DNA from: a virus
Lineage: Duplodnaviria; Heunggongvirae; Uroviricota; Caudoviricetes
Length of the DNA: 50,054 bases
IMG/VR virus record: IMGVR_UViG_2563366820_000003
Span: 1-50,054 of that record
Strand: one strand, 5' to 3'
Position numbers: made by a program. Positions 38,801 to 44,800 of the stretch are shown here, one piece after another. The first letter of the stretch is position 1; each line of letters starts with the position of its first letter.

Positions 38801-41800
38801 ATAGAGATGGAAATCTAAGTTTGAGAATGGAGACTGTAAAATATTTAATTAAATTATTGCCTCAGATACAGGGAGCCTTGGATCAACACCCTGGTATTAT
38901 GAATCAGCTAAGAAATGCCAGAGATAACCTTCAGGGTGCTGGCAAAAATGCCCGCGCAATAATTGAGCTTCAGGTGCGACAATCGCCGGGTTCCGACATA
39001 CTGGCACAACTCGCCGGAACGCAACAAATACCGGGGTAAAAGATGTCACTTAATTACTTTGGACAAGCTTTCAAACTGGCGTTTGAAGTTTCGCCCATTC
39101 TTTTAGTTGATGGCATAGCGTCGAAAATTCCCGGCGGGGTGATGCCGATTGTTGTTCTGACCGAAGGACTAAGTATCGCGAACGGTCTGCTGCATGGAGA
39201 GATTCATACACGCTCGATGGCGGCATTCACGCCAATGGCCGGGACAACGCTGGTCCAGCAGGATATTTGCAACCTGAATTTCTATAACCAGGTAACGGCA
39301 GCGAATGCGACCGTCAGGAAGCCCAATCGGGTAGTCATGCAGATGATCCGTCCGGCATCAACGGAGGACGGTGGCTACACCACTAAGGGGATGACGTTTA
39401 CGGCGCTGAAAATGGCGCTTGATATGCATAACCAGTATGGCGGTTGCTACACCGTTCTGACTCCCTCGTTTATCTACACGCGCTGTCTGATGCGGTCGTT
39501 TATCGATACATCCGGTTTCTCTGAGCAGAACAAGCAGGTTCAGCACACCTGGCAGATTGAGTTTGAGCAACCATTATCGTCTGTCGAACAAACGGTAAAA
39601 ACGCTGGCGAGCGTTCTGGATAAATTTGATAAAGGGATGCCGTCAGACGGGCCGCTATCGTGGTCAGGTATTAAGAACCAGGTCGTGCAGGAGTTTGGTA
39701 TTGGCTTATGACAACGTTAATTCCTTTCAAACCAGACGGGCGAGGTCCGTTTCAGTTCACGGCCAGAATCGGAGAATATGAAACATTCGCCCGCGTTCCG
39801 TTTAACCTGTATGCAAATCGTTACTACCTGGAACTGAAAGACAGTTCTGGAGACGTGATTGTTTACATGCCGCTGATTGCGTCACCTGACAGTTACGACA
39901 TCAATCTGGCGCTGCCTTGCTCACCGGGGAAACTTGTTTTTCGCGAAAGTACGAATCAGTTTGAGGTTTCGTAATGCGTTATTACCGACTGGAAATTATT
40001 AATCCTAAAACAGGCAAGCCGCCAGTGGATAGCAATGGAAAACCCATTGGACCTTTTGATACCAGTGAAACACCAGGATGTGGGTTGCATGTTGAATTTG
40101 ACTTTGAAGTAACCGGCCTGGATGTAGTCTGTTCGGGCACGATGCTGACGATCTATGGATTACCAATTGACATGCTGAAGCAAAGTGTAAGCTTGCAGGG
40201 GGGGCTGGTCCGTATGAAAGCAGGCTTTGTTCAGGGGTTACCACTGGCAAATAAGGATCAACAGGGGGAGGTAATCTATGGTGAAATTTATCTGGCATAT
40301 GCCAACTGGATCGGCACGAACCAGACTTTAAACCTGGTAATAAATCCAAGCATACGCAAAACCGATGACGGTAAACCTTTTTCAATTGAGGGGCAGGGGG
40401 AAGCAGGCGAAAGGGTTGGCGATGTTTTAGTCCGCGCTTTGCAAAAAGCATATCCCAATAAATTGATTGATTGCACAGTCAGCGACAACCTGGTTTTGCC
40501 AGAGCCGTGGACGGGTAAATATACGGAGATTGGTTCTCTGGCTATGGTCGTAAAAAACGCTTCTATTGCGATGATGCGTAATGAAAGGTATAGCGGAATC
40601 GCGATCAGTATTCTTTCCGACAGAATACGAATCTACGATAACGCATCAGCAAAGTGGGGTGAGCCAAAAACAATTCATGCCCATGAACTGGTCGGGCAGC
40701 CGACATGGATAGCGCCGTTTACCGTCAGCTTCAAATGCCCGATGAGGGGCGATATCAGATGTGGTGATGTGGTTAATTTGCCGGAGGGGCTTTATTCGGG
40801 CGCCGCGTCGATAGTGATGGCTAATACAATGGCTCCTGGCGTTATCTCCAAAAACTCGACCACGTTTACCGGGAAATTTCTTGTGAAATCGGTCAGACAC
40901 ATTGGTTCGTATCTGACAGCCGATGGCGATGCCTGGGTGACGGTATTCGAGGCATATGCTGAGAACTGGGCGAGGGTGTAATGTCAAACGCTCAAAAATT
41001 ACCGTTTCTCCGAACGCTGTCGGAGATGATGACCAGTTCTGGTAACCAGCAAGCCGAGCTTAAAGGTCGTGAATTGCCCTGCCATGTTGTAGATGTCAGT
41101 GGGCAGATAGTGACCGTTCAGTTTGATATGTTGCCAGAGGGGATCAACTTTCCGCAGATAACAATCCCTGTCGCCACATTCCCGTATATCCGTTACCCGA
41201 TACAGCCGGGTGATCGAGGAGTAACAATTTCCGCTGATGTATCCCTGCGCGGTGTGTCCGGGTTGGGAACAGGTATGGCGACACTCTCTTACTCGATGTC
41301 GCTCACTCCACTATTTTTCGTGCCACTGGCAAACAAGGAATGGTCCGACGAAGATCCGCAAAAAATCGTTTTGTACGGTCCTGACGGCGCAATTCTCAAA
41401 ACAGAGGATGGCAGTAGCTCGGTAACGGTGGCTCCGGAAGAAATCAGGCAAAAGTCGAAAGCTGTTTACCTCGAGGCCGAAGATATTTTCCTGAACGGGA
41501 AAATTCACCTCAACGGACCGATCGTCCAGGACAAAGCCCAGATGAAGGATACAACCGCTTCGCTGATTGGTCCTCTCAAGGTCGAGAAGGATGCAGTTAT
41601 CAACGGCGTGAGCGTCAGCGGCCACAGTCACGATGTGACTGGCGTTCAAAGCGGCGGCAGCACGATTACGTCGAAGCAGCCAAATCCGGGTTAATACCGG
41701 TTTATTTCACTTTAAATTCTATCCATAAAGCGAAAGCCCCGAACTGTTGCAGCAGTTGGGGCTTTTTGTTTCTGACCTTGAATAAGGCAAGGGATAATTA

Positions 41801-44800
41801 CGTATGTTTGGAGGTCTTCCGTGATTAATTTTAGCGGAGGAGACTGGATTGTGGAAGCTCTAAAATTGCTCGAAAGAAGTCCGGTTCTAAGAAGAATGTT
41901 TTATACAGTTCTTATAGTTATCGGAGGGTTTGCTGTTGCTAAATCTCTTCCGGGAATCGCAGAGATCATAAAGGTTCTAAATGGATAGCGAACTGATTCC
42001 TAAGGCTAAGACAACTCCGCAAGGAGCAGATAAAGCTGTGAGGATAATCGTATGAGAACATGGGGCCGCGTCACCGACGCGAACGGCAACAAAAAATGGG
42101 TTGCTGTAGAATCTGACGCCAACGGTGATTTCTCCTACGGCTGGCTGACGACGCTCATTCAGACGTTAAAGCTGGGGTTGGGGGAGTCGCCGTTTTACGC
42201 GAATTACGGTATTCCAGCGCAGCAGTGCATCGTGCAGCAAATTTACCCGGACTACTATGTGAACATGGTTCAGCAACAGTTTGCCGGGTATTTTGCATCA
42301 CTGGCAATTTCAAGGGTAGATGGGACTGAGAACCCCACCTATAACATCGATGTTGTGTTTTTTAATGGGACCAGCTACCGGACGCAGGTTCCGACATGAA
42401 AGCATGTTTTTACTTGCCTGATGCAGTCGGTGACTCTAAACTCTGCGGACTTTTGTATCTGGCTAAAGTAAAAATCGTGGTATATAGTCGTTAACAACGA
42501 CTGAGGGACAAGACATGGCAATAGGTTACGCATTCGCATTGGCGGCAATTACGCAGCAGGTTAATCAGATTAATGAATCTGTTAATGGTGCGTTTCTTCC
42601 GTTGATCTCAAATGCTTGTGAAATGCCGCAGAGACTTAATGCTGAAGAAGCTTTCAGACGTTGTTCTGCAATTGCCGGGCTATCTCAGGAAGTTGAAAAC
42701 ACTGCTACCGCAGGAATGCGTCATCTTGAAGCGTTCCGTGATGGAAAGTTAGTGGCGGATAACCTTCCAGAGGATTTTTTGCCGCATCTTGACGGTTTGG
42801 CAAAAGCATGTCGCGGTGCGAAAATACACATCGTGGAGATGTTTTCGGTCGCGGAAAAATCGCCGATGTGGCAGGGGCATTTGGGCATGCTTCGTCCGCT
42901 GAAACGGAAGTATGTACGCGCCTTAACTGCCGTTGAAAATACTGCTGTTCAACTGGCCGCAGAAGTTAAACAGGTTTTACCTGCGCGGCCAGAATCTTTA
43001 CCATCTCAAGTTACTCGCGAAGAGGCGATTAATCTGATTACAGCATCCCACAAAATGCTGGGCGTCAACACACCGAAATGGATGTGATATGGCGAAGGTC
43101 AGTATAACAGGTGAGTTGTGCCATCTCGCGGCTGCGCACAAATACGCGCAAATGCTGGCAGATTTTCTTTCAAATGGTTCACAATACTGGTGTTTTGGTT
43201 CGCTTGGTGGTTTCGAAAGAAATTATGATGCGATGGCCGCGAACATCAGAAAAATACACTTAAAGTTACCTGGTGATAAACCATGGCCTCCAGATGCGCC
43301 GTTAAGTGCAAGAACCTGTGATAATTTCCTTGTTTTCGCACAGCACCTTTACGATGATGAGCACTACCAGATTCTTGCAATCATAAACCCTGATGCACAT
43401 CAGCGTGTGGATGCGATGCTTCCACGACTGGTAAGGCTTGCAGAGGAAAAATTTATTGAACTTTCCTCTGATGAGTTAGCCAGGCTAAAAACCTATGACG
43501 CTTGAACCCGCCGCAATCGGCGGGTTTTGCATATTTACCGGATGTAGCTTCCGGTATGAGGTAAATTCTCGGGGGCAGTCTAACTGCTACTTATTGCTAG
43601 ATACACATTTTTCAAAGTTTTTTATCATGTCATTCAAGACTGAATTCATTGCCTCATGGGTTTTATGATCTATTCTTTATCTAGATAATCTTTATTATTT
43701 TTTTTGTGTTTTCTTTAGTGTCAGTAATTGCCTTTTTACATACTTGATAATTAGAGAAATGACTGTGCCCATATCTTTTATATTATATGGGTTGTGTAAA
43801 GTGTCAGGAGGAATTATCATAATAAATATTGTCGAATTTCATTGACATTATTCCAGATTTTCCATAGATGGAATCTGATAAGTATGCAGTATTCATATTT
43901 CCGGCAGTAAAGTTATCAGTATGACACAGAAAGCGCAGCCCGTATTGAATTTTTAATCTATGCATAGCATCGTTGCAGGCTGCTCTTATTAGACGGGTAT
44001 GATTATTGTCTTATTCTTTATCGCATGCTGAAATGAAAGAGTGGATGCAATTAATAATAAAATTAATTTCTTCATAACTTATCCTTGAGATTAACTATGT
44101 CAGAAATACCAATTACTATGACCAGTGCGGGTGCGCAGCCTACGCCACCCAATGATTTACTCGCAAATCTTATCACCAGAGTTGCTGAAAAAGTACCTGG
44201 ATATACAGCCAACCTTCCGGCGGGACTTATTACAGACCTTGCCAGCACGGCAGTCGGGGCGCTGGCATTAATAGACCAGGCGCGTGTTGATCTTATTAAC
44301 TCCGTAAGCCCATACGGCGCGAATATTCCGTTACTGATGCAACTCGGAAACATTTATGGAGCACGGAAGGGATTAAGTACAAATACGGCGGTATACGTGG
44401 TGTTTGAGGCGTTGCCGGGGTTTGGCATCCCTAAAGGGTTTGTGGTTGGTGACGGTAACTACCAGTATGCAGTTTCCCGCGATACGGTGGTACCAGAAAG
44501 CGGGCAGACTGAGCCAGTCTACTGTGTGGCTACAACGTCAGGATCATGGGCTGTACCGGAAGGGACTGTGACGCAGGTCATTACCTCAGTACCAAAAGAC
44601 CAGCCTGTAAAGTGCACGAACCTTAGCGCAGGAATGCCCGGTCAGGAGGCGCAAACGTGGGCATCTTACCGCGCCGAAGTCATGGAGTCCGGCATGTTTG
44701 GTGTGCAGGGAACACCGGATTGCTTTAAAGCGATGCTCAAATCAGTAAGTGGTGTGCGAGAAAACCTGATTTCTTTCCGGCAGTCGTCGCTGGGGAAATG

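Follow-up and report, generated by a model that had tools for sequence, protein, structure and literature searches.

A mobile two-gene cassette pairing a putative YafO-family toxin with an undescribed helical protein in the baseplate module of a Rac-type prophage

What interrupts the baseplate genes of a Rac-type lambdoid prophage of Escherichia coli between its spike-like gene and its baseplate J-like gene? This question is raised by IMG/VR virus record IMGVR_UViG_2563366820_000003, whose positions 1 to 50,054 (50,054 nucleotides (nt), hereafter the window) were analyzed in this study. A first-pass annotation had read positions 41695-44084 as a single accessory insert of 2.4 kb. The open reading frames (ORFs) of 55, 115, 190 and 138 codons that it placed there, and the spike gene end at 41694, were confirmed; the single insert was not. 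The interval was compared with those of Rac-SA53, vB_Apl-pPE4 and the E. coli prophages in TUM9812, RSHH22 and STEC711, and the comparison split it into blocks of different history. Judged from these alignments, the interval is a layered mosaic: one gene belongs to the core of the baseplate, two more form a mobile cassette, and the remains of two older accessory genes follow. The cassette (approximately 42406-43534, plus strand, ~1.15 kb) has its own control region and terminator, and encodes a 190-amino acid (aa) and a 138-aa protein. It is likely to be a type II toxin-antitoxin moron, in which a YafO-family RNase is paired with a helical antitoxin-like partner.

The 138-aa protein (43089-43505, plus strand) matched the Pfam family PF13957 (YafO_toxin) with 60.4 bits against a cut-off of 25 (E 1.9e-16), with 87 of the 101 model positions covered, and PF13957 was found in all 23 of its homologue clusters. 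The first-pass annotation had recognized none of the proteins of the interval, but this one is named by Pfam and also by the NCBI annotation pipeline, which calls an identical protein "type II toxin-antitoxin system YafO family toxin" and the protein upstream of it hypothetical. Its score against the NCBIfam equivalog NF007377 was 29.7 bits, below the cut-off of 153, and it is 29% identical to YafO of E. coli K-12 over 70 aa. Because PF13957 is matched above its cut-off and NF007377 falls far below, the protein is a family member, not an orthologue of K-12 YafO. Nine residues are invariant among its homologues and K-12 YafO: G37, H57, P65, R75, L81, P101, H104, E119, and F122. The ratio of nonsynonymous to synonymous substitution rates (dN/dS) of the gene is 0.054, indicating purifying selection. 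The YafO toxin family belongs to the RelE/ParE superfamily (PMC11980606), and YafO is an mRNA-cleaving translation inhibitor whose dependence on the ribosome is debated (PMC11980606, PMC8546651); searches of the PDB found no solved YafO structure. With H57, R75, H104 and E119 conserved with K-12 YafO, the 138-aa protein is a putative endoribonuclease that would inhibit growth.

The 190-aa protein (42515-43087, plus strand; phrog_35514) is a putative antitoxin, predicted to be all-helical. No sequence match to it was found in Pfam, NCBIfam, PADLOC or the PDB; neither a known antitoxin family nor a recognizable DNA-binding domain, of the kind that YafN has in Phd/YefM, was identified. The family is small, with 29 clusters at 90% identity and 16 representatives among 1.84 billion. 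Its AlphaFold 2 model (predicted local distance difference test score 78) contains six helices and gave only generic helical-bundle fold matches; the best Foldseek match in the PDB had an E value of 0.048 and a template-modelling score of 0.28. The conserved C-terminal segment was modelled at low confidence. A relationship to YafN was considered and ruled out (hhalign probability 0.15%). The gene is under purifying selection (dN/dS ~0.09-0.10) and evolves about twice as fast as the toxin gene. Within the family, C35 and C50 never vary, and H70, H105 and H179 vary little or not at all; the two cysteines are present in the remote homologue P0053 and absent from another, P0060. These residues may form a metal or redox site. 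The 190-aa protein is probably an antitoxin, and its family is undescribed.

Linkage between the two genes is tight. The 190-aa gene stops at 43085-43087 and the 138-aa gene starts at the ATG at 43089, leaving a 1-nt gap in place of the overlap that had been described. In 46 of 46 additional loci, a 190-aa gene was followed by a 1-nt gap and a 138-aa gene; in ten further loci read one by one, the pair was likewise adjacent. The 190-aa gene always lies directly upstream of a PF13957 gene, and its remote homologues (profile E ~1e-4) also precede PF13957 genes. The earlier proposal that the pair resembles a toxin-antitoxin cassette with its own control region held up, since the second gene encodes a PF13957 toxin and the two travel as a unit. 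The searchable literature yielded no description of the partner family, of its being paired exclusively with YafO toxins borne by phages, or of how the cassette behaves; the toxin family was already known and is annotated automatically.

The cassette occurs in many settings. Copies were found in a lambdoid nin region of Klebsiella, in Serratia beside a type I restriction-modification system, and 3' of a tape-measure gene in a bat-gut phage; in several siphovirus lineages, the cassette separates the tail tube/chaperone genes from the tape-measure gene. In a Cronobacter-type myovirus it stands between hub and spike, which is the commonest context in IMG/VR, and in Rac-SA53-like phages it occupies the slot between the W- and J-like genes; baseplate modules of two unrelated myovirus lineages carry it. 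It is also present in accessory ("moron") slots of unrelated prophages, where the neighboring slots of relatives hold Lom, LprI and Ant. Remote pairs were seen in two further places: directly 3' of a cI-type repressor gene (HTH_3 + Peptidase_S24) in locus L071 (475-2291), and between gene A and the ogr/portal genes of a P2-like prophage in locus L072 (1-4341). The P2-like interval from gene A to the portal gene matches the old/tin defence hotspot of P2; Rousset et al., in 2022, reportedly described it as a defence hotspot.

The cassette is rare. It was found in 38 of 5,426 complete E. coli genomes, in one of 185,579 species-representative genomes, in 45 IMG/VR contigs and in one plasmid-like record, and it is absent from the closest relatives with the same tail. 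One 45-kb IMG/VR contig carries the same cassette (99-100% protein identity) with flanks matching the window. The TUM9812 prophage, of the same lineage, has a cassette in the same slot, yet the synonymous divergence (dS) between the two cassettes (42515-43505 versus 3464-4454 of locus L003) is 0.58-0.86, compared with 0.21 for the adjoining W-like gene. This excess indicates that the two cassette alleles were exchanged or acquired separately. Erosion was observed as well: in a metagenomic myovirus (L021, 4633-4991), the YafO-like gene is split into fragments of 53 and 80 aa beside an intact 191-aa partner gene, and the proximal palindrome described below is degenerate too.

Comparison of 25 distinct upstream sequences defined a control region at 42445-42514 (plus strand). 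Its shared elements are a CTAAACTTTGCG box with a TTGCGA-like -35, a T-rich -10-like hexamer and a GAGGGA Shine-Dalgarno sequence; in the window, we read the -10-like hexamer as TATAGT (42483-42488, plus strand). Two inverted repeats accompany them, both given on the plus strand. The proximal one, AGTCGTT-AAC-AACGACT (42487-42503, 7-bp arms), includes the GTCGTT-AAC-AACGAC core at 42488-42502 that had been noticed on first reading; it is indeed present, and is conserved across copies with symmetric compensatory changes. Its general form is GTCG-N5-8-CGAC, with the variants GTCGTT/AACGAC, GTCGAT-T-ATCGAC, GTCGTTT-A-AAACGAC, and GTCGT-N5-ACGAC. The distal one (42452-42467) has the general form TTAGC-N5-GCTAA and the symmetric variants TTAGC/GCTAA, CTAGC/GCTAG, and TTATC/GATAA; it is degenerate in the window. 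Among 19 sequences, the pairing of the inverted repeats was kept in 90% of cells, compared with 27-48% when the partners were slid, and four pairs had changed on both sides. A palindrome with 6-bp arms is by itself within chance, several being expected per 2.4 kb by a rough estimate without shuffle control; its significance comes from its conservation across copies of the cassette.

The two conserved dyad-symmetric elements are candidate autoregulatory operators. As RNA, the proximal repeat folds into a hairpin of -7.9 kcal/mol, and it could be either an operator or a 5'-UTR (untranslated region) hairpin. The distal element most likely acts on DNA, because every plausible -10 for a promoter of the cassette itself lies downstream of it. 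A consensus promoter scan called no promoter upstream of the pair, and the assignment of the promoter hexamers is therefore tentative. Two lineages (L010 and L066) do not have the control region at all. A LexA box like that of the dinB-yafNOP operon was looked for and not found near 42380-42520; no known RNA family was found in the interval above gathering scores, with sub-threshold terminator-like matches only. At the other end, the cassette is closed by an intrinsic terminator (43504-43530, plus strand; -20.3 kcal/mol, z -4.5, no shuffle as stable) that overlaps the stop codon of the toxin gene. This hairpin is conserved, or swapped for an equivalent one, in the copies from TUM9812, Klebsiella, and Serratia.

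How the cassette came to its present site can be read from its borders. Relatives carry a convergent antirepressor gene (ant) and one or two secreted-protein genes in a variable slot 3' of the W-like gene. In RSHH22, which has no pair, the 3' ends of the W-like gene and ant overlap in antisense by ~25 nt, and this segment is single. Two copies of that segment, each ~28 nt long, flank the cassette in the window, in TUM9812 and in L022, a siphovirus-type prophage of Salmonella; the window copies lie at 42375-42402, the 3' end of the W-like gene, and at 43535-43562. The right copy belongs to a remnant of an AntA-type antirepressor gene (43535-43573, minus strand), whose translation ends ...PENLPHTGSYIR before the stop codon; intact Ant proteins end in MPENLTHTGTCAR and MHENLPQTGTCVR. 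An 85%-identical block, shared by the window with TUM9812 and L022, begins at 42385/42406; its end at 43573 lies 39 nt inside the intact ant genes of the other two; the window thus retains just the last 13 ant codons. In L022 (3845-3900), a fragment similar to the final ~14 codons of the W-like gene of myoviruses is found with no W gene nearby and a Lom-like neighbor. This fragment indicates that the block of W end, pair and ant moved between phage morphotypes, and suggests that it passed from a Rac-SA53-like myovirus to a lambda-like siphovirus.

Beyond the ant remnant, the first-pass annotation had described a 550-bp AT-rich non-coding stretch. The composition (GC 0.30-0.37 across 43550-44150) and the absence of any ORF of at least 60 aa were confirmed; the stretch is nevertheless not non-coding, consisting of the ant 3' remnant and a frameshifted pseudogene (43587-44075, minus strand). 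The sequence from 43577 on is 78% identical in DNA to RSHH22 3634-4228, where an intact minus-strand gene encodes a signal-peptide protein of 179 aa (WP_000733801.1) with no Pfam family. By tblastn, the pseudogene is 58% identical to this protein, and its frame is interrupted by stop codons, changes of frame and two deletions. Since the broken frame is homologous to the RSHH22 gene, the stretch is a pseudogene rather than a regulatory or non-coding element. The rac61 and rac62 genes of Rac-SA53 were also considered as its source; they gave no tblastn match, and the 179-aa gene of RSHH22 fits.

The 115-aa ORF (42052-42399, plus strand) has a different history. The first-pass annotation had counted it as accessory, but it is conserved in all related prophages, between the V-like spike gene and the J-like wedge gene, and its family comprises 717 clusters across Enterobacterales, compared with 29 and 23 for the 190-aa and 138-aa families. 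Conservation of this kind is the very finding that the first-pass annotation had named as refuting its view. Its distribution places the 115-aa protein among the core baseplate components, not the accessory ones. The protein had no Pfam family at E <=0.1, GPW_gp25 and Sheath_initiator included, and no PDB sequence match using a 34-sequence profile. The best structural matches of its predicted model were the gp25-like protein 2ia7, the XM1 sheath initiator and TssE, and in an unrelated myovirus lineage a 117-aa protein of the Pfam family Sheath_initiator occupies the same position. P2 gpW is a protein of ~115 aa; the ORF resembles the gp25/P2 gpW/TssE family in its approximate size and in its place between spike and J. 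It is most likely a sheath initiator of the gpW/gp25 type.

Upstream of this gene, an intrinsic terminator (41728-41771, plus strand; -23 kcal/mol, z -4.1, 0 of 200 shuffles as stable) follows the V-like spike gene. It recurs in Rac-SA53, TUM9812, RSHH22 and STEC711, where changes in the two arms of the stem compensate each other (GCCCC/GGGGC versus ACCCC/GGGGT), and is thus a feature of the lineage rather than the edge of an insert. The terminators that had been claimed on both sides of the insert were found and are strong, but the first belongs to the lineage and the second closes the cassette, not the interval; a simple promoter/terminator scanner detected neither. Between the first terminator and the W-like gene lies the 55-aa ORF (41821-41988, plus strand), with a GTG start, a GGAGG Shine-Dalgarno sequence 6 nt upstream and one hydrophobic segment that probably spans the membrane. 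It is also present in RSHH22 and STEC711, and exact or near-exact copies of the protein are encoded on more than 200 contigs, Cronobacter included. Its place is taken in Rac-SA53 and TUM9812 by an unrelated hydrophobic ORF of 45 aa (rac58), which in Rac-SA53 ends with ...WKFLLIWLVFLILASGYFVGQIRWW; the STEC711 slot holds several small hydrophobic ORFs in tandem, up to three or four. The tiny hydrophobic ORFs of this slot (window 41775-42051; L001 3801-3938; L005 2046-2883) differ between relatives, and the slot may be a second accessory site. On the far side of the interval, the core tail module resumes with the J-like gene (44097-45323, plus strand; Pfam Baseplate_J, phrog_6). Its ORF does open at the TTG at 44085, as first reported, and ends at 45323; relatives are annotated with a 1227-nt gene, corresponding to the ATG at 44097, which is probably the true start.

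The window as a whole, a Rac-SA53-like lambdoid prophage of myovirus type, carries recT, a cI-like HTH repressor gene, a YdaT-family gene, a Q-type antiterminator gene, a holin gene, and a contractile-tail module ~95% identical to that of Escherichia phage Rac-SA53. The HTH_3 repressor-like gene (minus strand) adjoins the YdaT_toxin-family gene (plus strand) at 8111-9232, as in the Rac immunity region. Rfam identified the RalA small RNA at 1557-1735 (plus strand; 181.9 bits versus a gathering score of 170) and the sok antisense RNA at 13801-13967 (plus strand; 108.8 bits versus 59), the latter pointing to a hok/sok-type locus. RalA is the antitoxin of the RalR/RalA type I system in Rac prophages; together with the YafO pair, these elements give the prophage at least three of toxin-antitoxin type. 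The 3' part of the sok RNA overlaps a 362-aa ORF with rve-type transposase domains (13911-14999, minus strand), and an insertion sequence may have entered the hok/sok locus or come to lie next to it. Two tRNA genes downstream of the Q-like gene, tRNA-Thr(TGT) (17676-17829) and tRNA-Gly(TCC) (18480-18561), were both confirmed by Rfam; ARAGORN also called an odd "tRNA-Tyr" with its anticodon ATA at position 36, to which Rfam gave no confirmation and which may be either spurious or a degenerate tRNA. Among the relatives, PP818812.1 (L002) was deposited as the Actinobacillus pleuropneumoniae phage vB_Apl-pPE4, and its tail module is ~95% identical to those of E. coli Rac-SA53-type prophages. This host assignment is surprising and might reflect contamination or mislabelling.

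Among the closest known counterparts of the cassette is the YafN-YafO pair of the K-12 dinB-yafN-yafO-yafP operon. Both toxins belong to PF13957 and share the invariant His, Arg and Glu residues, and in both pairs the antitoxin or putative antitoxin gene comes first, tightly juxtaposed to the toxin gene. The low toxin identity and equivalog score given above set the two apart; moreover, YafN is a 97-aa Phd/YefM-type protein, whereas the window partner is a helical protein of 190 aa with no similarity to it. The window pair also lies outside a dinB operon, has no LexA box near its promoter and is phage-borne, while a 2011 survey saw YafO on neither phages nor plasmids (PMC3141249). Another is a pair in the immI region of phage CUS-3 (phrog_18235 and phrog_1651, uncharacterised), in which a 199-aa helical protein is followed by a 139-aa PF13957 toxin. 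The C-terminal half of the CUS-3 partner aligns with that of the window, including the SHxxxGxxxPKW end, but its N-terminal half is unrelated, and the toxins are 40% identical. The two CUS-3 genes overlap, follow two genes annotated as mnt and are not preceded by the GTCG...CGAC palindrome.

Morons, of which lom and bor of lambda are examples, are genes added to late operons together with a promoter and terminator of their own. The window cassette resembles them in its autonomy, with a control region and terminator of its own, and in its location within the tail-gene operon of a phage with a Q antiterminator. It differs in that its cargo appears to be a two-gene toxin-antitoxin module instead of a single conversion gene, and in that the insertion is bracketed by the ~28-nt duplication.

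The ~1.15-kb cassette inserted exactly at the 3' overlap of the W-like gene and ant, where the ~28-nt segment is now duplicated; ant was later deleted down to 13 codons, and the neighboring 179-aa secreted-protein gene decayed. From the observed anatomy, homology, linkage, mobility, selection and symmetry conservation of the cassette, the following may be proposed for its toxicity, neutralisation, DNA binding and biological role. The promoter, with its two dyad-symmetric operator-like sites, would drive a bicistronic mRNA ended by the hairpin terminator. The toxin is probably translationally coupled to the 190-aa gene, as it starts 1 nt after the stop codon of the latter. The 190-aa protein would bind and neutralise the toxin, probably via its conserved C-terminal half (AExSxxW ... 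SHxxxGxxxPKW motifs), and, alone or in complex, would repress its own promoter; once freed, the YafO-family endoribonuclease would cleave mRNA and arrest translation. In a lysogen the cassette would be expressed on its own, and during lytic growth Q-modified RNA polymerase would read through it. The cassette would probably stabilise the prophage or abort infection by other phages; this part of the proposal is drawn solely from the locations of the cassette and its remote relatives, which favor a protective or selfish function expressed in the lysogen.

Several observations weigh against a type II toxin-antitoxin module. Sequence and fold searches revealed no recognizable DNA-binding fold in the 190-aa partner, which is about twice as large as a classical antitoxin. 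The weak promoter hexamers escaped the consensus scan, the distal inverted repeat is degenerate in TUM9812 as well as in the window, and the spacing of the GTCG/CGAC half-sites, 5-8 nt, is unusual for a single type of operator. None of the four ORFs matched PADLOC-DB v2 at E <=0.1. We infer the toxicity of the 138-aa protein and its neutralisation by the 190-aa protein from sequence, and the score far below the YafO equivalog cut-off means that the target could differ from that of K-12 YafO.

Other explanations were weighed on the same evidence. The pair may serve mainly in phage-triggered abortive infection, the helical partner being a sensor or chaperone-like inhibitor that releases the RNase on meeting a component of an invading phage. 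The cassette and its relatives do lie where lysogens keep defence genes (beside a restriction-modification system, in the nin region, by a cI-type repressor gene, in the P2-like A-to-portal interval, in CUS-3 immI, and in moron slots by Lom, LprI and Ant), the partner greatly exceeds a minimal antitoxin in size, and it is nearly confined to viral contigs (45 IMG/VR loci versus one of 185,579 species genomes). However, such locations do not discriminate defence from addiction, the partner has no recognizable sensor domain, PADLOC gave no match, and no link between YafO-family pairs and defence was found in the searchable literature; abortive infection as the main role is accordingly regarded as a minority prospect. 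The earlier suggestion of an undescribed accessory or defence system goes too far: the 190-aa partner alone is undescribed, the toxin family is known, any anti-phage role is hypothetical, and PADLOC gave no match. A selfish addiction module, whose sole effect would be post-segregational killing that stabilises the prophage or the cassette, was given the same modest weight as abortive infection. The classic type II architecture and high horizontal mobility suit it, as do the exchange of alleles suggested by the dS contrast between cassette and W gene and the presence of RalR/RalA-type and hok/sok-type elements in the same prophage. It depends, though, on the same assumption of toxicity, and a cassette so rare in E. 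coli, and lost or eroded in some copies, does not point to strong addiction.

The position in a tail module might itself be functional, with the 138-aa protein acting as a lytic-cycle RNase for host shut-off or late-mRNA processing and the 190-aa protein as a regulator or tail-associated factor. Most copies do lie inside tail or baseplate operons, and no terminator was found between the W-like gene and the pair, so late transcripts should include it. This explanation is improbable nonetheless, since the closest relatives make the same tail without the cassette, which also occurs outside tail modules and has its own control region and terminator. Least credible of all is the original view of 41695-44084 as one insert carrying a wholly unrecognized system, with the 55-aa and 115-aa ORFs among its parts and an AT-rich tail that does not code. 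The terminators do exist, and the tight packing of the genes is broken; comparison with related prophages refutes the rest, because the 115-aa gene and the first terminator occur in all of them, the toxin is recognized by Pfam and NCBI, the AT-rich tail is a pseudogene with an ant remnant, and the homology blocks have separate histories.

In sum, a toxin-antitoxin moron remains the preferred reading of the cassette, and no result of this analysis overturns current ideas. The locus reveals a mainly phage-borne YafO lineage that is always accompanied by a helical, non-YafN partner of ~190 aa and moves, from promoter to terminator, between unrelated prophages. In annotation, the "hypothetical protein" encoded upstream of such a YafO-family toxin should be marked as its cognate partner; the label of probable sheath initiator suits the 115-aa "hypothetical" protein, and that of pseudogene the AT-rich gap. 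A bolder view, somewhat less likely than either abortive infection or addiction taken alone, is that the helical proteins of 190-200 aa (phrog_35514, phrog_18235, and their remote relatives) form a new, almost phage-exclusive class of YafO-RNase partners that act as sensor or chaperone-like gatekeepers, and that the pair is a compact abortive-infection system shuttled by temperate phages between tail-module accessory slots, immunity regions and P2-type hotspots. YafO is among the least understood toxins of the RelE superfamily, and whether it depends on the ribosome is disputed (PMC8546651). Confirmation that the partner is an antitoxin would add a new antitoxin family and provide a tractable system for studying what triggers YafO-type RNases.

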